Below are positions 1 through 7,581 of a stretch of DNA of 7,581 nt, in pieces (position 1 is the first letter of the stretch; every line of letters starts with the position of its first letter). A model generated the notes under the pieces. That model saw only the letters and a program-made list of their open reading frames with translations. It was not told where the DNA came from and ran no database searches. The DNA comes from a virus (Duplodnaviria; Heunggongvirae; Uroviricota; Caudoviricetes), in IMG/VR virus record IMGVR_UViG_2648501485_000016, positions 1 to 7,581 of that record. One strand, written 5' to 3'. Position numbers and translations under genes: made by a program.

Positions 1-33
1 GCACTTTTTATATAAATCTATAATTATATAATT
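1..33 (-). promoter_or_regulatory. AT-rich conserved intergenic motif, copy C (promoter-like; strand uncertain)
   Basis: Plus strand 7-17 is TTTATATAAAT, followed by TATAAT at 19-24. The same core recurs at 1151-1160 and 6474-6484. It lies directly after the methylase stop codon (34-36). Truncated by the window edge. Confidence 0.4.
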
Positions 34-621
34 TTATGCCACTTGCCAGAGAGCATCATGCAACTGGATACCTCCATTGCACTGGTTGCCCCAGCCATGC
101 CAACCATCAGGTAAATCACCGCGAGCAAACAGCTCAATACGAGGAACATCACCTAACAGCCTTACCAGCTTGTCACGAACCACATCAGGCTTCCGAGAAT
201 GCTCCAGACGAGGCGATGTAAACGACTGAATGATCCCCGCATCAAGGCGGGTCGGCAATTTGCCTTTTACCGCAAACAAGCAATCTTCACTGTTTGCACG
301 AGTCATATGCCCCATCCCCATCACCAGCTTATCTGGTTGTCGGCTACCACATTTGTTCCATGTGAAGCCCTTCATGGTCATAAGCCTGAATCCCCATGCT
401 TTCACCACCAGCAACGCTTCTTCTGGCTGAGTCGGAACCCACCACATGGCCAACAAACACGATTCAGGATTAGCAAGCTGCCAGACAGGAATACGAGCAA
501 TATCCTCAGCTTTCATCGTTGGATACTTAAAACCAGCTCCACGATTCCCATCCTTACACTTATCTTTGTATTCCCAGGGGGGATCTGCATAAATCAGATT
601 AAACAATGCAATTGCCTCCAT
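34..621 (-). CDS. DNA N6-adenine methyltransferase, MT-A70 / phage Dam-like family (195 aa)
   Basis: The translation begins MEAIALFNLIYADPPWEY; DPPW is the catalytic motif IV of N6-adenine methyltransferases of the MT-A70 type. ATG at 621-619 is preceded by GGAGG about 10 nt upstream; stop TAA at 36-34. No adjacent restriction endonuclease ORF, so it appears to be an orphan methylase. Confidence 0.8.
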   Translation of the reverse strand: MEAIALFNLIYADPPWEYKDKCKDGNRGAGFKYPTMKAEDIARIPVWQLANPESCLLAMWWVPTQPEEALLVVKAWGFRLMTMKGFTWNKCGSRQPDKLVMGMGHMTRANSEDCLFAVKGKLPTRLDAGIIQSFTSPRLEHSRKPDVVRDKLVRLLGDVPRIELFARGDLPDGWHGWGNQCNGGIQLHDALWQVA

Positions 622-684
622 GTTAGTTGTGCCTCCGGCGCTTATCTCCGGCAGTCATAACGCTGGCCAGCTCTACAGCAGACA

Positions 685-720
685 CAACGAAAAGGGCACT
701 AACCAGACTGATTAATGCCC
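685..720 (-). terminator. Candidate hairpin followed by a short U run (minus-strand transcript), between the tRNA and the methylase
   Basis: Minus-strand RNA: GGGCAUU / 13-nt loop / AGUGCCC, then CUUUUCGUUG. A 7-bp stem including one G-U pair; the loop is long and the U tract short, so this is weak. Confidence 0.25.
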
Positions 721-865
721 TTGCCTGTTGTGTGCCGGATATCGCCCGACAACGCTGTTTTGGTAACACGGCTACAGTTCCGTGCCGCTCCAGCTTTTAC
801 CCCTTTGCGGATAACAGGCCCTGCCTGTACTCACTAACCAACGGCTTCCCGAAATGTGCACCAGG

Positions 866-920
866 CACGCATAAAGATGAGCACGAAGAAGTAACTCCAC
901 CGCGCTTATCTTTATGTGTG
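866..920. repeat. Imperfect inverted repeat (15-bp arms, 25-nt spacer) immediately 3' of the tRNA
   Basis: CATAAAGAT at 870-878 is the exact reverse complement of ATCTTTATG at 908-916; the arms extend to 15 bp with 2 mismatches. No U tract follows on either strand. Confidence 0.4.
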
Positions 921-929
921 AGGGTGAAT

Positions 930-1005
930 TGGTGGCCCCTACCGGATTTGAACCGATGACCGTGCGATTATGAGTCGCCTGCTCTAACCACTAAGCTAAG
1001 GGGCC
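930..1005 (-). tRNA. tRNA with anticodon CAU, closest to the tRNA-Ile2 (lysidine, AUA-decoding) type; elongator Met not excluded
   Basis: The reverse complement of 930-1005 gives a 76-nt sequence: GGCCCCTTAGCTTAGTGGTTAGAGCAGGCGACTCATAATCGCACGGTCATCGGTTCAAATCCGGTAGGGGCCACCA. It has a 7-bp acceptor stem (GGCCCCT/AGGGGCC), a D-arm, an anticodon stem-loop with U33-CAU-A37, a T-arm with GGTTCAAATCC, and an encoded CCA end. The acceptor stem and anticodon arm match my recollection of E. coli ileX; the D and T arms differ. Confidence 0.85.
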
Positions 1006-1016
1006 ATATTTGATTT

Positions 1017-1097
1017 GTTTGTCTGGTGTGGCGCCGCGCACGAAAATCCCAGCCAATAAATTCAGGATTTTTGGGCGCGGCGGCATATCAGACAAAC
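1017..1097. repeat. 81-bp imperfect palindrome (33-bp arms, 15-bp spacer, GC-rich core) between the promoter-like motif and the tRNA
   Basis: The left arm at 1017-1049 (GTTTGTCTGGTGTGGCGCCGCGCACGAAAATCC) matches the reverse complement of the right arm at 1065-1097 (GTTTGTCTGATATGCCGCCGCGCCCAAAAATCC) at 28 of 33 positions. The spacer is CAGCCAATAAATTCA. Confidence 0.7.
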
Positions 1098-1140
1098 ATG
1101 GTTGATGCGTGCGCCCATGAGAAAAGCGCATAGAATGTTG

Positions 1141-1177
1141 TAACTATATATTTATATAATTATAGAAATATATATTA
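1141..1177 (-). promoter_or_regulatory. AT-rich conserved intergenic motif, copy B (promoter-like), after the spanin stop and upstream of the palindrome and tRNA
   Basis: Plus strand 1151-1160 is TTTATATAAT. The minus strand reads ...TTCTATAATTATATAAATATATAG..., containing TATAAT and TATAAATA. Confidence 0.4.
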
Positions 1178-1384
1178 CTTTCGGCAGTTGATTTCCCATG
1201 CCCTGTTATGAGCCAGAATATCTTTCTTTGTCTGGCGGTCCATAACATCGATGTCGTGATCAGTCAGGTAGATGGGCTTTACCCAATCACAGGCGGTATC
1301 AACCACCACCGGGACGCTTCCACGACTCCCGCAGCTCGCGATCAACATCGTCATCAGCCATATGGTTAACACTCTGCTGTACAT
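1175..1384 (-). CDS. Putative o-spanin (Rz1-like outer-membrane lipoprotein, 69 aa)
   Basis: N-terminal signal peptide with a lipobox (LIASC) in MYSRVLTIWLMTMLIASCGS..., and further Cys residues in the short mature part. The gene starts inside the i-spanin gene in a different frame and extends past its end (overlapped architecture). RBS GAGGTG lies about 5 nt before ATG 1384. Confidence 0.6.
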   Translation of the reverse strand: MYSRVLTIWLMTMLIASCGSRGSVPVVVDTACDWVKPIYLTDHDIDVMDRQTKKDILAHNRAWEINCRK

Positions 1385-1577
1385 TCCCCACCTCTTTTGT
1401 CACTTCTATACGCCGCTCCGCAGTGGCTTTTACGGCGGCTGCATTCTCATTAATGCGCTGCTTTTCAGCTTCATCTTCGGCCTTTTCTCGCCCCTTCATA
1501 CGACCAAAACCAAACGCACCGAATGCAACCAATATAACGGTGCCGATAAATGACAAAACGGCTTTCAAACCAGTCAT
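1299..1577 (-). CDS. Putative i-spanin (Rz-like, 92 aa)
   Basis: N-terminal transmembrane segment (LKAVLSFIGTVILVAFGAFGF) followed by a highly charged, probably helical domain. ATG 1577-1575 overlaps the endolysin TGA stop (ATGA). Its position directly after the endolysin and the embedded lipoprotein gene support the call. Confidence 0.6.
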   Translation of the reverse strand: MTGLKAVLSFIGTVILVAFGAFGFGRMKGREKAEDEAEKQRINENAAAVKATAERRIEVTKEVGNVQQSVNHMADDDVDRELRESWKRPGGG

Positions 1578-2116
1578 ACCACCACTCGCTCTTTCATCCA
1601 GCCGTAGACAAACGACTCATTAGCCTCGCGCTTCTCCGCCAGCTCCAGATAGCGTTCGCCCTGCGTACAGTTCAGCGACGTCAGCATCACCCGTTCGCCG
1701 TCTTTTCCCCGATTCCCAAGATAAGCACGTAGCGCATTAATGGTACGTGGACCGATTCGTCCGTCTGCATCCAAATCGGGATACAGCTTCCCGCGCAGGT
1801 TGAACACATTCAGCCAGCGTTGAAGCATTTTTGACGCCACTGTTGGCCCCATGTTCACCCCCGTGTCACACAGCTCTGCGGCAATATCAGAGGATAATGC
1901 GGCCACCTGATCAAAGCGTGGTCCGTACCAGTAATCAGCCTCAAGGATTTCCAGTGCCTGTTCGCGGGTTAAATCGCGCATATCGCCACGGTATCCATGA
2001 GCACGGGCAGTGTTCTGAGTAATGCCCCACTTTGTTGGGCCTCCCTTGTCGTCAGGGTGATCCACATAGCCGCCCTCTTTTCCAAGAACGCTGTTAAAAA
2101 TCTCATCTTTGGTCAT
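1574..2116 (-). CDS. Endolysin, glycoside hydrolase family 108 N-terminal domain with a C-terminal peptidoglycan-binding domain (180 aa)
   Basis: The translation begins MTKDEIFNSVLGKEGGYVDHPDDKGGPTKWGIT, which carries the EGGY...D.GG.T..GI signature of GH108 muramidases. The C-terminal half has the PG_binding_3-like pattern (YPDLDADGRIGPRT). Confidence 0.85.
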   Translation of the reverse strand: MTKDEIFNSVLGKEGGYVDHPDDKGGPTKWGITQNTARAHGYRGDMRDLTREQALEILEADYWYGPRFDQVAALSSDIAAELCDTGVNMGPTVASKMLQRWLNVFNLRGKLYPDLDADGRIGPRTINALRAYLGNRGKDGERVMLTSLNCTQGERYLELAEKREANESFVYGWMKERVVV

Positions 2117-2399
2117 GATTAAACCCTAATGCGTCAACTATCCGCGCCAGATTGCCCCTGAAATACAGAACAACGATGCAGATAATCAGATTTCCAATAA
2201 CCACCAGCCAGTGGGATTCTTGATAAAGACCGAACACATAACGGAAGGGAACATTGGCGTATACAATGACGTAGATATAAGCCAGAAAGGAAACAAATGG
2301 ACGATGCCTGGAGTCTTTCCGTCGATAAAGCATCAGCGCCATTACTATTACTGTGCAAAGCACCGCATTAATCAGTGCTGACGGGTCACTGCTTACCAT
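2103..2399 (-). CDS. Small three-TMD membrane protein, holin or antiholin candidate (98 aa from ATG 2399)
   Basis: Three hydrophobic segments (ALINAVLCTVIVMALMLY, FVSFLAYIYVIVYANV, WLVVIGNLIICIVVLYF) and a charged C-terminus. Strong RBS GGAGGGGG 5 nt before ATG 2399. The longer ORF reading to 2435 has no RBS, so I prefer the internal start. Overlaps the upstream gene by 14 nt and the endolysin by 14 nt. Confidence 0.55.
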   Translation of the reverse strand: MVSSDPSALINAVLCTVIVMALMLYRRKDSRHRPFVSFLAYIYVIVYANVPFRYVFGLYQESHWLVVIGNLIICIVVLYFRGNLARIVDALGFNHDQR

Positions 2400-2781
2400 T
2401 TGAACCCCCTCCACGTAAGCGGGAAAGCATTCCAAAGATGCTACCGAGATCCTGGCTGTTTACGAACGTGAGGATTTTAATTGTCAATGCAGCCACAATA
2501 ACCGCACCAAGCGCATCAAGAGGACGATCGTTGTAGCTGGTCCATTTGGCAAGAAATGAGCCAACTAACGGCGCTCCAATCACTCCAACAATGAACGATG
2601 TAAAGAAATAGCCAATCAGCTTGAGACGGCTAATATTCACCGCTGTAGCAACATAGAAAACAGCGCCAGCAAATGCCCCGAATACAACGCCGTAATCAAT
2701 ACCAGTTGCAATACCAAAAACGCTGGCACCCATCAGGCCACCAGCAGCAACGGCCGTACCGGAAATTGGTTCTGCTGACAT
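2386..2781 (-). CDS. Four-TMD membrane protein, holin candidate (131 aa)
   Basis: Gly/Ala-rich hydrophobic helices (TAVAAGGLMGASVFGIA, YGVVFGAFAGAVFYVATAV, LIGYFFTSFIVGVIGAPLVGSFL, LGAVIVAALTIKIL). RBS GAGGA 5 nt before ATG 2781. It is the first gene of the lysis cassette. Confidence 0.55.
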   Translation of the reverse strand: MSAEPISGTAVAAGGLMGASVFGIATGIDYGVVFGAFAGAVFYVATAVNISRLKLIGYFFTSFIVGVIGAPLVGSFLAKWTSYNDRPLDALGAVIVAALTIKILTFVNSQDLGSIFGMLSRLRGGGSNGKQ

Positions 2782-2794
2782 TGAAATCCTCGTT

Positions 2795-2827
2795 AAAAAA
2801 AAAGCCCCGCCGAAAAAGGCAGGGCTT
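2795..2827 (-). terminator. Rho-independent terminator (minus-strand transcript), immediately upstream of the first lysis gene
   Basis: Minus-strand RNA: AAGCCCUGCC / UUUUUC loop / GGCGGGGCUU followed by 9 U. The stem is 8 GC-rich pairs (one G-U) plus 2 A-U pairs. On the plus strand there is a C-A mismatch and no T tract, so it is unidirectional. The U tract ends 3 nt before the holin RBS. Confidence 0.7.
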
Positions 2828-3010
2828 CATAAAGCAACAAATTACGCGGTAATCGCTTAACGCAGTTTTACTACGTTAAATGAAACACTACACCCAGTTA
2901 CCACCTAAAACAAGGTTTCCCCATAAAAAAACCTTCACAATGTGGTTAATCGATCGATAAAAAAACAATACTTAACTTTTGACCAACCGAACATCCCGAC
3001 CAGGACTTCC

Positions 3011-3039
3011 ATAATATTCGCCGATATGCCACTGCTTAA
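3011..3039 (-). promoter_or_regulatory. Candidate sigma70-type promoter for a roughly 210-nt leader RNA (weak)
   Basis: Minus strand TTAAGC (3039-3034), 17-bp spacer, TATTAT (3016-3011). The -35 element is poor. It sits in the 330-bp untranslated gap between the 119-aa gene and the terminator at 2795-2827. Confidence 0.25.
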
Positions 3040-3111
3040 GTTGAGTAATCTTCTCCAACTTAACTCCCATAGAGTCCAGTTTCTGCCATGTTTTCGGTTG
3101 TATGTGCTTCA

Positions 3112-3471
3112 TTACCCGCTCTGAATATCTGAATACTGCTCGTAAGCGCATGGATTCTCACTACAGCTTATCCAACCACCCGGAGTTACCGAAACTGGCG
3201 GCGCGGCATATAGCTTACGGGTCTGAACACCTGCCCCCTGACATTTCTCTTCCTCAACAAACCATTCGAAAGCACATTCCCCGCAATCTTCCCATTCTCC
3301 CCATTCATCATATTCTGCATCCCACTGGCGATACTGATATGCCACCGGTTCTGCTTCCAGCAAGGCTAACGCTATTTCATAAGCCCGGCGCTCAATATTG
3401 TCTCGCACATCCAAGCGGCCTATGCGCTCTTTGATTTCTTTAATCAGTTCTTTGTCGGTAAAAGTGGTCAT
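3112..3471 (-). CDS. Hypothetical acidic protein with Trp/Glu-rich and Cys-containing segments (119 aa)
   Basis: RBS GAGGA 7 nt before ATG 3471, which overlaps the upstream TGA (ATGA). About 25 Asp+Glu against 12 Lys+Arg. Contains EWGEWEDCGECAFEWFVEEEKC. No recognisable domain. Confidence 0.6.
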   Translation of the reverse strand: MTTFTDKELIKEIKERIGRLDVRDNIERRAYEIALALLEAEPVAYQYRQWDAEYDEWGEWEDCGECAFEWFVEEEKCQGAGVQTRKLYAAPPVSVTPGGWISCSENPCAYEQYSDIQSG

Positions 3472-3677
3472 TTGTTAATCCTCAAAACTTTATGCCCGGG
3501 CGCAAAAGCACGCGTTTTGTCTTTGCTTATTCGCCAGCCATCCTTGCGCGCCTCTTTTGCACAGCCAGCCCATGACGTACCGATATACTCACCGAAGTCT
3601 GGCACTGGATATACACCTTCCGTACACTGGCGGCAGTCACAATAGAGATGCATGGTGTAACTTGCGGCAATAGCCAT
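3468..3677 (-). CDS. Hypothetical small Cys-rich protein (69 aa), possible zinc-binding
   Basis: Strong RBS AAGGAG 6 nt before ATG 3677. Contains HLYCDCRQC ... C. Stop TGA overlaps the next gene's ATG. Confidence 0.55.
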   Translation of the reverse strand: MAIAASYTMHLYCDCRQCTEGVYPVPDFGEYIGTSWAGCAKEARKDGWRISKDKTRAFAPGHKVLRINK

Positions 3678-3678
3678 A

Positions 3679-4308
3679 TCATTCTCCTTTGATGCGAATA
3701 CCAGCAGCGCGGATTGCAGCGATGACTTCAGAAACTTTGTATGCCATTACCGTTTGGTAATCCTCGTGAAAATCTGTTCGATGAAGCATGCTGCTACGTT
3801 CTGGGAGCGATATTTCCCGTGCTTCCAGTTCTGCAATGCGCTTCTCTGCGGATTCCAACGCCGCAACCAATTCGTCTACAGTTCCGGCAGCTTGCAGTGC
3901 GTAATCGGTAATAGCCATCTCATGATCAATTTCAGTACCGTTCTCATTCGTTGAGGTGATAGCAAAATAATCAGAGTCGATTTCGTTATCAGCTAAGTGG
4001 CGTAGCGTATCGGCAACAAGCCGGCCGTTTTCGATTAGCAGCTTCCCTACCGTAAGCGCAATATCCTCGTTCTCCTGGTCGCGGCGTTTGATGTATTGCT
4101 GGTTTCTTTCCCGTTCATCCAGTAGTGCCAGCACGGTTTCTGGTCCGGCCAGAAATTTGAAGGCGTTGAGCGCATCAATATCCACACCGTAATCTTTAAG
4201 TTCCTGTTCACTTAACAAATCATCATCAGCTGGCAACATTAACAGGCGTTCCATTGCTGGAATTGCACGTTCCGCCGCCTCACGCAGTGCCTGATAGTCA
4301 ATTGTCAT
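3679..4308 (-). CDS. Hypothetical strongly acidic protein (about 209 aa from ATG 4308)
   Basis: ATG 4308-4306 overlaps the upstream TGA (ATGA), with AAGGA 8 nt upstream. The ATG at 4317 directly abuts the Shine-Dalgarno sequence, so I prefer 4308. About 44 Asp+Glu against 23 Lys+Arg. No recognisable catalytic motif. Confidence 0.6.
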   Translation of the reverse strand: MTIDYQALREAAERAIPAMERLLMLPADDDLLSEQELKDYGVDIDALNAFKFLAGPETVLALLDERERNQQYIKRRDQENEDIALTVGKLLIENGRLVADTLRHLADNEIDSDYFAITSTNENGTEIDHEMAITDYALQAAGTVDELVAALESAEKRIAELEAREISLPERSSMLHRTDFHEDYQTVMAYKVSEVIAAIRAAGIRIKGE

Positions 4309-4949
4309 TCTCGCCATCCTTCACAGTTGTAATCACTACAGCCTTCAAAATCATATGGGCTGTACTGCCAGGTTATTTTTCCGCAATGCGGACAATTCCA
4401 ACGCACCTTCCCGCTTCGCGACTTCTTTCTTCTGTTCTGCTCTTTCAACCAGTCAGGCATGACCAAACCTGCGCCCTGAACCATTGTTCTGCGGTTAAAG
4501 TTATTGATATTGAACGTCCGGCGCTTTGCTGCATCAGCAATGGAAAATGGCAACCAAACTATTCCTGGTTCGTTTTTGTTGACGACGCTAAAGATGGTCG
4601 CTTTACTGAAGTCATCTGTTGGCAATCCACCGTGTTGAAGCCAGTAAACATCGTTGCCGTTCCAGCTACCTTTTTTGTAGGCCACATACTCAGTGCAATC
4701 TGACTCAATCAGGCTTTCTGTAGGGATGTACTGGCAATCAACGTGCCACACAGCCATTGCATCCACACTATCGGCACAAACAGGCTGATCGATATCTCGC
4801 CCACAATTCCAGGCTTTTTGGGCTTCTTCCAGCGTGTAAATATGAGCGCGATCGATATCAGAACTGTAACCATTGCCGTTATGGCAATGGAATGAGGCGT
4901 TATTACCCACAGTTTCACGCAAGCACATCATGTAAAAACGGTTACTCAC
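4305..4949 (-). CDS. Hypothetical Cys-rich protein with a C-terminal zinc-ribbon-like segment (about 214 aa from GTG 4949)
   Basis: GTG 4949-4947 is preceded by AGGGGG at a 6-nt spacing. The TTG at 4973 listed in the ORF track has no RBS. C-terminus reads ...WNCPHCGKITWQYSPYDFEGCSDYNCEGWRE. Confidence 0.55.
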   Translation of the reverse strand: MSNRFYMMCLRETVGNNASFHCHNGNGYSSDIDRAHIYTLEEAQKAWNCGRDIDQPVCADSVDAMAVWHVDCQYIPTESLIESDCTEYVAYKKGSWNGNDVYWLQHGGLPTDDFSKATIFSVVNKNEPGIVWLPFSIADAAKRRTFNINNFNRRTMVQGAGLVMPDWLKEQNRRKKSRSGKVRWNCPHCGKITWQYSPYDFEGCSDYNCEGWRE

Positions 4950-5625
4950 TGGTTGCCCCCTGAATACGCTCAAACTCGATTACCCACACCCAGGGATTAG
5001 CGTTCCAACTATCTTCGCCATAAATTGATTTCCATAGGCTACGGAAACCTGGGTAATGCTTATCGCCAATGAGGGTCGATTCTGTTGGTGCGCCCTCAGC
5101 CCTTGCATCGCATTCGCTGATATCGTTCAACCGCTCAACGCGCACGTTGGTAATTTCCAGAAGAATGCGCGATGCCCAGCGCGGCATGTGAATTGATGGA
5201 CACCACCCGCCATCAAATTTTTCATTCACAGTGTGAGGTTTCCAGTCGGCATCATCGGGTATCGACCACAAGCCATAATCCCCCGGTTTTTGCTCACAAC
5301 TGGCTCGATAAATCCTTGCTGCGTTCTTCTCATCGCCACGACAAAGGTTGTCGTTCCAGTCCACACTGCAACCATCCTCATTGCCTAATATCGCCCACGC
5401 TTCACGGACCCATATGCGATCACCAACGTTACCGAACGGGCATAAACTATGTTCAGGTGCATCCATAACGTGGGTATAGACACCATTGCGTTTCTTTGTC
5501 GGTTTACGGATAACCAGGCAGTTATCGGCCCTGACATTTTTTACAGGTCGGCGAGTCTGCGTCTTCCTGCCTTCGAGGATGGCCCTAACCATATCGTCAT
5601 TAAAAACAACACCACGTTCTTTCAT
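4942..5625 (-). CDS. ASCH-like (PUA-fold) domain protein with a C-terminal extension (227 aa)
   Basis: N-terminus MVRAILEGRKTQTRRP ... GDRIWVREAW fits the ASCH pattern (G-x-K-x-x-x-x-R, then GD-x-hydrophobic). RBS AAGGTGG 7 nt before ATG 5625, which overlaps the upstream TGA. Confidence 0.6.
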   Translation of the reverse strand: MKERGVVFNDDMVRAILEGRKTQTRRPVKNVRADNCLVIRKPTKKRNGVYTHVMDAPEHSLCPFGNVGDRIWVREAWAILGNEDGCSVDWNDNLCRGDEKNAARIYRASCEQKPGDYGLWSIPDDADWKPHTVNEKFDGGWCPSIHMPRWASRILLEITNVRVERLNDISECDARAEGAPTESTLIGDKHYPGFRSLWKSIYGEDSWNANPWVWVIEFERIQGATSE

Positions 5626-5813
5626 TTAGAAGCCACCTTGTTCAATTTCCGGCGACAAGACACGCAATCATCAGGACTCTCAAAAGTGTCTGGCTCACGG
5701 TAATCACCAAAATACATCCAACGGCCGCAAATGCTGGTTACTTCACCTTCATTAAAATAATGATGTTTATTCGCCTTCATTGGCCTGACCCATCCGGCAT
5801 TTTTCTTGCTCAC
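5622..5813 (-). CDS. Hypothetical small Cys-containing protein (about 63 aa from GTG 5813)
   Basis: GTG 5813-5811 overlaps the upstream TGA (GTGA) and is preceded by GGGAGGAG at a 5-nt spacing. The ORF-track ATG at 5876 has no usable RBS and would overlap the upstream gene by 67 nt. Contains C-x19-C-x2-C. Confidence 0.5.
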   Translation of the reverse strand: MSKKNAGWVRPMKANKHHYFNEGEVTSICGRWMYFGDYREPDTFESPDDCVSCRRKLNKVASK

Positions 5814-6175
5814 TTCAACTCCTCCCGACGACGTTCCTGAAGCTCTAGCATTGCGGCTCGGAAATCCTGCCACCATTCCTCATCTGCAACGGGGGTGTTC
5901 CGCTCCAGCACCTTGTCCGCATCGGCGATCAGGTTTGACAGACTCTTGTCTGAAATCTTCGTTACCGGAGTCGTTGGTTGCTCAACCTGCCCGATAGGTT
6001 TTATCGTGCTCAAAAGGAGGCGACGGCGGGAAAGTGGTGCCCCACAACGACGGCCATCTTCCTTGCGATATGTTTCTTTCGGACCAACACACCAGGTTGT
6101 CGGCGTTTCGCGTAACTTCACTCTTTTCTCACCATCATTGGTAATGATTATTCCGGTATGGGTTTTGATGCTCAT
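5810..6175 (-). CDS. Hypothetical protein (121 aa)
   Basis: RBS GAGAGGGG 7 nt before ATG 6175, which overlaps the upstream TGA (ATGA). Basic N-terminal half, acidic C-terminal half. No recognisable motif. Confidence 0.55.
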   Translation of the reverse strand: MSIKTHTGIIITNDGEKRVKLRETPTTWCVGPKETYRKEDGRRCGAPLSRRRLLLSTIKPIGQVEQPTTPVTKISDKSLSNLIADADKVLERNTPVADEEWWQDFRAAMLELQERRREELK

Positions 6176-6453
6176 GCCACAGCCCCTCTCAACGGCTTTA
6201 CTTTGGCTAATAAGGTGTTAAACAACATGGAGTTAGGATTCATGCCAAATGGCAATTCCGGTTTAGCGGAGTAGTACAGGCAACCATTTATTTTCCTGGT
6301 TGTTATCTGTCCTTCGGCAACCATGCTTCTCAGTCTGCAACGCATAGAGTTCTGCGACACACCAATGTGTTCCGCGATTACGTCCACTTTTGAACATGGG
6401 TGATCGGTCAGGAAATTAATCACATCTTGGGGGTTAATAATTTTGCGTTTCAT
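6172..6453 (-). CDS. Small winged-helix DNA-binding protein (PapI/FaeA-like pattern), first gene of the small-gene operon (93 aa from ATG 6453; alternative ATG 6474)
   Basis: The segment INFLTDHPCSKVDVIAEHIGVSQNSMRCRLRSMVAEGQI fits a helix-turn-helix / winged-helix layout resembling small PapI/FaeA-type regulators. AAGGA lies about 10 nt before ATG 6453. ATG 6474 abuts the AT-rich motif with no Shine-Dalgarno sequence. Confidence 0.55.
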   Translation of the reverse strand: MKRKIINPQDVINFLTDHPCSKVDVIAEHIGVSQNSMRCRLRSMVAEGQITTRKINGCLYYSAKPELPFGMNPNSMLFNTLLAKVKPLRGAVA

Positions 6454-6473
6454 TGTCGAGGCGTCCTTATACA

Positions 6474-6500
6474 TTTATATAAATATATAATTCTATATAC
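6474..6500 (-). promoter_or_regulatory. AT-rich conserved intergenic motif, copy A (promoter-like), immediately upstream of the winged-helix gene
   Basis: Plus strand 6474-6484 is TTTATATAAAT and 6486-6491 is TATAAT. The minus strand reads GTATATAGAATTATATATTTATATAAATG. It sits between the hairpin at 6500-6519 and the first gene of the operon. Confidence 0.45.
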
Positions 6501-6519
6501 GGCGGGAGACATCCCGCCG
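6500..6519 (-). terminator. Perfect 8-bp GC-rich hairpin 11 nt after the stop of the upstream gene (terminator-like; no clean U tract)
   Basis: CGGCGGGA (6500-6507), loop GACA, TCCCGCCG (6512-6519). On the minus strand it is followed by UAUAUAGAAUU. Confidence 0.4.
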
Positions 6520-6530
6520 TAGGCTTACTG

Positions 6531-7581
6531 TCAGGCTTTCAATAGCGATTCTTTCAGATATCGGGCATCAGCCAGGGCGTTTGGAGTAATCTTGCGAACC
6601 CATGCATTACGGGTTGGACTCCACTTAAAGGCGCGTGATTTAAGCAGCGAACGAATGTTTGCCTCTGGTTTGCCAGGGAAATAAAACAGGATGCGGTTAT
6701 CCTCTGGATCTATCTCCATAGAAAAGCCGTCGTATTCTTCGCGCTGTGCTCCTGTTACAGACTTGACCGATTCAAGCTCCTTAATACGGCTCTGTAGTCG
6801 TTTGATTTCGGCATTATTGTTACTCAGTGAGTATGAAGGGAAGCCAATGTGCCCACAGAAATCTCCGGCGAGTAACCCTTTGGCTTCGCTTTCAGTAAAC
6901 TCAAGGTCAATTAATGCGGAAAGCTGCTGTAATTGGTCTTTTTTGTATTTGCGAATAGCCTTATTTGCGGCCTTCATTTTGATGTGTGACTTCATGCAGC
7001 CTTGCAGCTTACGAAGCAACTTAAATAGCGCATCAGGATCATCAGACGAAACTCCATTACGGCCGACACCTGCGGCTTTGCTTTCGTAGTACGATGCTCT
7101 GCTTTCACACTCAACAAACGATTTTCTGAATAACGCATCAGCTTTAGACAAACGGCGGCGATGGCCTTTCGCGCTATAATGGTCAACTAAAATCGGCTGG
7201 CCTAACGGGATCACATCCAACAGTTCATGCGCTCGCTTATGCGCCACCGCACCTTCTTTTCTGGCTTTTTCTGCACGAGCAATATATCGGGCAAGACGCG
7301 CGTTCTGGCGTTCCTGATAGGTATTTACGTAATCATCTCCGCGCTGCTGCTGTTCAAGCCATGCTTTGCGCAGCTTTTCTGTTACGTCTACCAACTCTGC
7401 AGGGATACAACCTGTTTGGGATTCATAAGAGTGACCATCCTCATAAAGACGTCCATCGTCTTCAACAACGAAAAAGGTTTCGTGCTCATCGCTTTTGACC
7501 ATACGGCCATTAACATGACGTAATCTATAGCCAGTATCAGTGCTCAACAGGCTGTTAGGGTTGTTGATCCAGTCAGAAATA
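6531..7581 (-). CDS. Hypothetical protein, 3' portion only (at least 350 aa; continues beyond the window edge); possible DUF3560-like region
   Basis: The reading frame stays open from the TGA at 6531 to the window end. The ORF-track start at 7547 is a TTG with no RBS, so the true start is upstream of the window. The motif LGQPILVDHYSAKGHRRR resembles what I recall of DUF3560; this is unverified. Confidence 0.65.
   Translation of the reverse strand, partial: ISDWINNPNSLLSTDTGYRLRHVNGRMVKSDEHETFFVVEDDGRLYEDGHSYESQTGCIPAELVDVTEKLRKAWLEQQQRGDDYVNTYQERQNARLARYIARAEKARKEGAVAHKRAHELLDVIPLGQPILVDHYSAKGHRRRLSKADALFRKSFVECESRASYYESKAAGVGRNGVSSDDPDALFKLLRKLQGCMKSHIKMKAANKAIRKYKKDQLQQLSALIDLEFTESEAKGLLAGDFCGHIGFPSYSLSNNNAEIKRLQSRIKELESVKSVTGAQREEYDGFSMEIDPEDNRILFYFPGKPEANIRSLLKSRAFKWSPTRNAWVRKITPNALADARYLKESLLKA

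Follow-up and report, generated by a model that had tools for sequence, protein, structure and literature searches.

INTRODUCTION

The Escherichia coli protein YqfB is an N4-acetylcytidine (ac4C) amidohydrolase of 103 amino acids (aa) (PDB 9kyf/9kyh, 1TE7) for which K21, T24, R26 and E74 have been identified as catalytic residues (PMC9599836), and whose mechanism has been revised in a 2026 preprint (bioRxiv 10.64898/2026.02.27.708502). The same preprint reports that ac4C was removed from tRNA by 19 of 19 ASCH proteins assayed, among them representatives of both the ‘GKTR’ and the ‘GKER’ type, and that the Lys and Thr/Glu residues are essential for this activity. Reported tRNA ac4C deacetylation extends to the ‘GKER’-type ASCH domains of human TRIP4/ASC-1 and EOLA1, and TRIP4 also binds double-stranded DNA (dsDNA). 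Here, we compare these proteins with the product of a phage gene located at positions 4942-5625 of a 7,581-nucleotide stretch of Caudoviricetes DNA (positions 1 to 7,581 of IMG/VR record IMGVR_UViG_2648501485_000016), which is referred to in its full length as the window. All window features described below lie on its minus strand, which carries every long open reading frame (ORF).

Two other described systems are relevant to this gene. The first is PmgT (phrog_874) of phage P1, a full-length homologue with 58-74% identity to the window protein over P1-like phage records (tblastn). P1 pmgT is non-essential (PMC10695390), and the part of P1-like phage-plasmids in which it resides is hypervariable and allows the gene to be replaced (PMC9603915). 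The two proteins share a split-ASCH architecture and an accessory, non-essential character. However, the P1 gene occupies a variable region near phd/doc, whereas the window gene is found in an early-type block of a phage-plasmid of ~49 kb, upstream of Ea22 and lysis genes, and two hypervariable loops of the P1 protein diverge from those of the window protein. The second is the set of systems from which Iyer, Zhang and Aravind proposed in 2016 that ASCH domains associated with N6-adenine methylases serve as readers of N6-methyladenine (m6A) (PMC4738411).

The ASCH label of some family members and the concept of an ASCH m6A reader (2016) precede this study. What is new here is the split single-domain architecture, the conservation of YqfB-type catalytic residues throughout the family, the presence of two hypervariable loops beside these residues, and a controlled negative result for linkage to methylases.

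RESULTS AND DISCUSSION

A widespread phage gene encodes a split ASCH barrel

The ORF at 4942-5625 starts with ATG and specifies a protein of 227 aa. A Shine-Dalgarno sequence (AAGGTGG, 5633-5639) is evident from the sequence itself 7 nt 5ʹ of this ATG, and inspection further reveals that the start codon shares the tetranucleotide ATGA with the TGA stop codon of an upstream 84-aa ORF. The encoded protein matches phrog_874 over residues 1-226 (E 2e-89), and this match together with the very large number of homologues means that the ORF is clearly a genuine gene, as had been assumed in a preliminary description of the window made from its sequence alone. An exhaustive HMMER scan at E<=0.001 recovered 43,919 family clusters (50% identity), of which 32,698 also satisfied E<=1e-10, with thousands of homologues distributed across genomes and metagenomes. 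Full-length relatives are carried by 350 of 50,697 phage records (tblastn), whose hosts include Salinibacter, Pseudomonas, Vibrio, Burkholderia, Myxococcus and Clostridium; crAss-like phages are also represented, as is phage P1, in which the gene is named pmgT. Some members are already labelled ‘ASCH domain(-containing) protein’ in GenBank and RefSeq.

Conventional domain searches largely fail to recognize this family. The window protein has no Pfam match even at E 0.1 (PF04266 included) and none in an NCBIfam scan, and the precomputed Pfam field is empty (‘-’) for all 120 close homologues. PF04266 is matched by 11 of 69 family representatives, the best at E 2.9e-6. No PDB sequence was recovered with the family profile, and a PDB search with the window protein gave a weak local match to TRIP4 that did not classify the protein. 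Structure prediction was more informative. An AlphaFold2 model built from 36 close homologues (model 1) is confident solely at residues 1-74 and 152-223, whereas a second model built from 69 diverse representatives (model 2) reaches a mean predicted local distance difference test (pLDDT) score of 81.7 and a predicted template modelling (pTM) score of 0.79. Foldseek places YqfB at top rank for model 2, with a probability of 1.00 and ~215 alignment columns that span the entire protein. Matches in BFVD are phage proteins, several of which are named ‘ASCH domain protein’. The beta-barrel of the model superimposes on solved ASCH structures, and the superfamily fold is thus shared with TRIP4/ASC-1 and EOLA1. 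The Foldseek result and the PF04266 matches bear out the initial assignment of the protein as ASCH-like with a PUA fold.

The preliminary description had also divided the protein into an N-terminal ASCH domain and a separate C-terminal domain, the latter in the form of a 120-aa extension. This division does not hold. Residues 1-26 correspond position for position to YqfB residues 1-26 (BLASTP and hhalign), and hhalign places residues 155-183 on YqfB 52-80 and residues 214-219 on YqfB 96-101. Moreover, the similarity of many family representatives to the query is confined to two blocks (~1-80 and 140-221). These two blocks and the collinear matches to YqfB indicate a split single barrel, in which the stretch taken for a C-terminal extension completes the fold as its second half: residues 153-221 are collinear with YqfB 52-101, including the catalytic Glu. 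The window protein is therefore one ASCH barrel interrupted by insertions at residues 28-61 and ~76-152, and it is these two internal insertions that account for its extra length. Longer family members carry no fused domain in Pfam.

The first insertion (residues 28-61; 5443-5544) is hypervariable, with a mean pairwise identity of 32% and pLDDT values of 56-64. It is followed by a conserved strand segment, C62-P-x-G-x-x-G-D-R-I-W-V-R-E75 (5401-5442), in which G65, G68, V73 and E75 are invariant and whose strand at residues 70-74 is present in both models. This segment corresponds in position to YqfB G36-R43, as read by eye from the two sequences rather than from a tool alignment. The second insertion (residues 76-152; 5170-5400) is specific to the family, is modelled with low to moderate pLDDT, and ends with the motif W141-x-P-S-I-H-M-P-R-W-A-S-R153 (5167-5205), which is >90% conserved. 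The second half of the barrel (residues 153-221; 4963-5169) is predicted with pLDDT values of 91-96 and contains another hypervariable loop (residues 179-193; 5047-5091), whose length in close relatives varies between 9 and 42 residues. Among 36 close relatives, mean pairwise identity is 81-83% in the core, versus 32% for residues 28-61 and 12% for residues 179-193. The two hypervariable stretches are placed immediately after R26 and immediately after E177.

The TRIP4 match mentioned above involves residues 133-160 (5143-5229; FDGGWCPSIHMPRWASRILLEITN), which align with beta1-alpha1, at the extreme N terminus of the ASCH domain of human TRIP4 (E 0.014). In the models, these residues sit in the middle of the protein. 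The match may be the remnant of an internal duplication, or it may have arisen by chance.

YqfB-type active-site residues and the predicted activity

Each of the catalytic residues of YqfB (Lys, Thr, Arg and Glu) has a counterpart in the window protein: K21, T24, R26 and E177. The first three are located in the octapeptide G19-R-K21-T-Q-T24-R-R26 (5548-5571), which is of the YqfB ‘GKTR’ type, falls on YqfB residues 19-26, and preserves the spacing of G19, K21, T24 and R26 exactly. The fourth is located in the tripeptide A-E177-G (E177 codon, 5095-5097), where hhalign aligns E177 with YqfB E74, and a C-terminal strand comparable to ‘VIEF’ is also shared with YqfB. In a set of 145 representatives, each drawn from a different 50%-identity cluster, 144 have K21, 142 have T24, 143 have R26 and 142 have E177. 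When the octapeptide is written as GxKxx[T/E]xR, each of its four positions is retained in 139-144 of the 145. There are also clear differences between the two proteins. YqfB-type amidohydrolases are compact single-domain proteins of ~100-110 aa, whereas the window protein has 227 aa and two insertions, one of which includes the family-specific conserved motif PSIHMPRWASR. In addition, the window protein is phage-borne, carries two hypervariable loops and has no Pfam or NCBIfam match.

From these data, we conclude that the window protein is an accessory, non-essential phage protein of the P1 PmgT/phrog_874 family with a YqfB-type ASCH barrel. Because the YqfB-type catalytic set is kept across the family, we favour a role as a hydrolase over that of a passive m6A reader. 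Specifically, the window protein is predicted, with a probability that we place at roughly 45%, to act as an ‘eraser’ that hydrolyses an N-acylated or otherwise modified base. Such an enzyme would hold the modified base, either flipped-out or free, in the pocket of the barrel and would take off an exocyclic N-acyl group, for which the model substrate would be N4-acetylcytidine as a nucleoside or within tRNA or another nucleic acid. If the mechanism follows that of YqfB, K21 and T24 would activate a water molecule, R26 would stabilise the oxyanion, and E177 would serve as the acid. Since they directly follow R26 and E177, the hypervariable loops probably tune specificity for a substrate or partner.

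Several considerations weigh against this prediction. In the profile-profile comparison with YqfB, hhalign gives probabilities of no more than 13-19%, and for this reason the relationship is argued from structure and from three short collinear matches. That K21, T24, R26, E177 and the loops surround one pocket is something that we infer. The conserved residues could serve base binding instead of catalysis, and the window protein is twice the size of YqfB and has a conserved insertion with no known role. An ac4C-type substrate is a guess taken from YqfB, for an enzyme whose hydrolase activity is itself only predicted. Genomic context gives this substrate no support, as the sole tRNA of the window is a tRNA-Ile2 and not the ac4C-bearing tRNA-Met. 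Finally, the tRNA-eraser result of 2026 comes from a preprint and is partly based on overexpression (bioRxiv 10.64898/2026.02.27.708502).

If the enzyme reading is right, it would provide a testable biochemical function for one of the commonest unannotated accessory families of temperate phages, P1 pmgT included, and the ‘ac4C eraser’ activity newly proposed for ASCH proteins would then also be represented in viruses. A broader proposal, which we offer as speculation and consider unlikely, is that PmgT-type split ASCH proteins might constitute a very large class of phage nucleobase ‘erasers’ that are active during infection. It is equally conjectural that this class might strip an N-acyl (ac4C-like) or related group from host tRNA, RNA, DNA, the nucleotide pool or a signal, and that its loops, situated at the mouth of the active site, might diversify in an arms race with host factors; neither idea should be given better odds. 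If true, this proposal would represent a new host-takeover or counter-defence activity.

Nucleic-acid binding and other catalytic functions

The protein could instead be a non-catalytic accessory factor that binds RNA or DNA, for instance for the regulation or protection of nucleic acid of the phage or the host, with the pocket residues serving only in binding. We view this possibility as a serious one, albeit doubtful. A crystal structure of the human TRIP4 ASCH domain contains dsDNA (9kyl), many Arg and Trp residues are conserved in the family, and some phage records label members as ‘RNA-binding protein’. However, these labels are inherited annotation rather than the outcome of experiments, and YqfB-type proteins that were tested earlier bound no nucleic acid (PMC9599836). 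The YqfB-type Thr and Glu are present in >=98% of representatives (that is, in at least this share), which is beyond what binding would be expected to need.

A different kind of catalysis on nucleic acid is also conceivable, with the protein acting as a ribonuclease like ZmASCH or as a glycosylase like BapA, which excises 5-hydroxymethylcytosine. In a phage, such an activity might serve host takeover or counter-defence. BapA is ASCH-like and both flips and excises modified bases (bioRxiv 10.64898/2026.02.25.707755), and hypervariable loops and a shifting genomic location would suit an arms-race gene. Nevertheless, the nearest structure and sequence are of the YqfB amidohydrolase type and not that of ZmASCH, a PADLOC scan gave no match for the ASCH protein, and no nuclease domain is fused to it. 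These observations make a ribonuclease or glycosylase function quite unlikely.

The ASCH gene shows no specific linkage to the MT-A70 methylase

The preliminary description correctly recognized an N6-adenine methylase of the MT-A70 family at 34-621 (PF05063 E 3.4e-23, residues 7-180). This assignment is further supported by a match to phrog_359 (DNA methyltransferase), by the PADLOC call MTase_II and by the sequence ‘YADPPWEY’, which contains the DPPW motif. The same description had suggested that the ASCH protein and this enzyme form a reader/writer pair, in which a non-catalytic reader would recognize the m6A deposited by the phage MT-A70 protein. There are general reasons to entertain this arrangement. 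Modified bases are read by the PUA-like domains YTH, EVE and SRA, and ASCH domains are fused to, or occur in operons with, N6-adenine methylases (PMC4738411). The window resembles the systems of Iyer et al. in that an ASCH protein and an N6-adenine methylase are encoded by one element, and some relatives adjoin MT-A70 or Dam genes.

Within the window, however, the two genes are 4.3 kb apart. The interval contains Ea22-like genes, small genes, a terminator-like hairpin, two holin genes, a GH108 endolysin gene, spanin genes, a tRNA and a second terminator-like hairpin. The first hairpin (2801-2828) is a strong consensus match, with an 11-bp stem that includes seven GC pairs and is followed by a T9 tail, and it separates the early-type block containing the ASCH gene from the holin gene and the lysis cassette. 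The second (692-722), also a consensus match, is located between the tRNA and the start of the MT-A70 gene. The canonical appearance of the hairpin at 2801-2828 suggests separate transcription of the ASCH block on one side and of the lysis cassette, tRNA and MT-A70 gene on the other, and the two genes are predicted to belong to different transcription units. Over the entire window (1-7581), matches to sigma-70-like promoters are strongly depleted, with one match compared to 10.9 +/- 3.5 in shuffled sequences.

We then evaluated the co-occurrence of the two gene families more broadly, which had been put forward as a check on the pairing. Within 10 kb of the ASCH gene in 78 ASCH-anchored IMG/VR loci, MT-A70 was found in 14 and Dam (PF05869) in 15, such that 37% of loci contain one or the other. 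As a control, 80 loci anchored on RecT were collected from equivalent early regions, and 39% of these contain an N6-adenine methylase. Split by ASCH content, the control loci carry a methylase in 3 of 15 ASCH-positive cases versus 28 of 65 ASCH-negative cases (odds ratio 0.33, p 0.14). Linkage is thus at background level, and methylases are simply frequent in these accessory regions.

In the vicinity of ASCH genes, MT-A70 and Dam are mutually exclusive (0 of 29 loci carry both), and often one or the other fills a single slot just upstream of the ASCH gene in the manner of alternative cassettes. N6_N4 methylases are near the ASCH gene in two of four metagenomic contigs >5 kb, a sample too small for statistics.

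Counts of phage records yield a similar picture. Overlaps were derived from union counts with concatenated queries, and therefore carry small threshold uncertainties and no phylogenetic correction. ASCH is present in 350 records, MT-A70 in 515 and their union in 848, which leaves ~17 records with both; by organism name, these comprise ~5 Klebsiella, 6 Salmonella and 3 Yersinia phages. Co-carriage is absent among the ASCH-bearing records of Salinibacter (184), Vibrio (34) and Escherichia/P1 (13). For Dam (PF05869; 1,931 records), the union of 2,236 gives an overlap of ~45 of the 350, of which 33 are Vibrio phages. Consequently, ~82% of ASCH-bearing records have neither MT-A70 nor Dam, and when the 184 Salinibacter records are left out, 37% of the remainder have a methylase, which equals the base rate. 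The preliminary description had named a lack of co-occurrence in relatives as grounds for refutation, and the pairing fails on this point.

An m6A reader paired with the MT-A70 writer would be best represented by the minority of cases in which the genes are directly adjacent, which include 15 of the 78 loci with a same-strand MT-A70 or Dam gene at most ~1.3 kb from the ASCH gene, as well as four Klebsiella phage genomes. These cases do not outweigh the ~17 of 350 records, the control data, and the separation of the window genes by lysis genes, a tRNA and two hairpins. In contrast with the systems of Iyer et al., the PmgT-type family shows methylase linkage at background level that is absent in most lineages, and it looks catalytic, with conserved residues that a passive reader would not need. 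Moreover, the m6A-reader role of ASCH was still unconfirmed experimentally as of 2024 (PMC11037411). We therefore regard a reader paired with the MT-A70 writer as improbable and conclude that the ASCH protein has no functional tie to the MT-A70 enzyme of the window. In enterobacteria, host Dam could also supply m6A, so that m6A reading as such may still occur, and it is only the specific pairing with MT-A70 that is unsupported. The presence of both genes in one genome is no reason to propagate such a pairing for the PmgT-type family.

A virion morphogenesis function, which derives from the P1 name pmgT (‘putative morphogenetic function’) and an inherited ‘morphogenetic protein’ label on some homologues and from nothing else, was dropped as scarcely credible because P1 pmgT is dispensable by CRISPR interference and earlier mutagenesis (PMC10695390), is replaceable in P1-like phage-plasmids (PMC9603915), has lambdoid prophage counterparts that reside among early recombination, Ea22, xis and int genes rather than structural genes, and encodes a fold typical of an enzyme or nucleic-acid-binding domain.

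Source element and gene neighbourhood

The nearest relatives of the window are Yersinia and E. coli phage-plasmids of ~49 kb. One of these, the E. coli plasmid pGMI14-004_3, encodes RepA, ParA and a P2-like tail. At 32741-36621 of this relative (our locus L163), three proteins with ParB_N/Srx domains are encoded upstream of the terminase gene. One of the three is a 457-aa ParB_N-Methyltransf_23 fusion, which would be a second candidate methyltransferase of the element.

The window is a mosaic in the region of the ASCH gene. The 3ʹ part of the gene (4942-5442) and the downstream genes of the Ea22 region (3673-4961) are 96-98% identical to phage-plasmids of the P1/P7/SJ46 type, whereas the 5ʹ part of the gene lacks such identity, which indicates a recombination breakpoint within the ASCH gene.

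No neighbouring gene is conserved across 81 ASCH loci. The most frequent immediate neighbours encode Ea22-like proteins, RecT and small unknown proteins. In lambdoid prophages, the ASCH gene is found near genes for Ea22-like proteins, RecT, YqaJ or RecE, CI, xis and int, none of which is a fixed neighbour.

Other features of the window

The tRNA at 930-1005 was called Met (CAT) by ARAGORN. However, we identify it from its sequence as ileX-like, that is, as a tRNA-Ile2 of the lysidine type. RefSeq calls an identical copy tRNA-Ile, and chromosomal tRNA-Ile copies are 88% identical. The phage-plasmid thus seems to bring its own decoder of AUA codons. A connection of the ASCH gene with this tRNA by way of an ac4C-bearing Met(CAT) species had been considered and was abandoned once the tRNA was recognized as ileX-like tRNA-Ile2.

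A complete lysis cassette (1175-2781) is positioned directly downstream of the Ea22-type early genes, which is an unusual arrangement. It consists of two holin-like ORFs (2386-2781 and 2103-2435) and a GH108-type endolysin gene (1574-2116), as judged from the RefSeq annotation of a related plasmid, and of two overlapping spanin-like ORFs (1299-1577 and 1175-1384) that were assigned by our own reading.

The gene immediately downstream of the ASCH gene (4305-4973) encodes a 222-aa phrog_2457 protein whose C terminus bears a zinc-ribbon-like CxxC...CxxC motif. With the TTG start codon that is annotated, this gene overlaps the 3ʹ end of the ASCH gene by 32 nt, and the true start may be further downstream. 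Lastly, positions 6531-7547 encode a 338-aa DUF3560 protein (PF12083 E 3e-31) with a further match, in its C-terminal half, to a PHROG annotated as primase.
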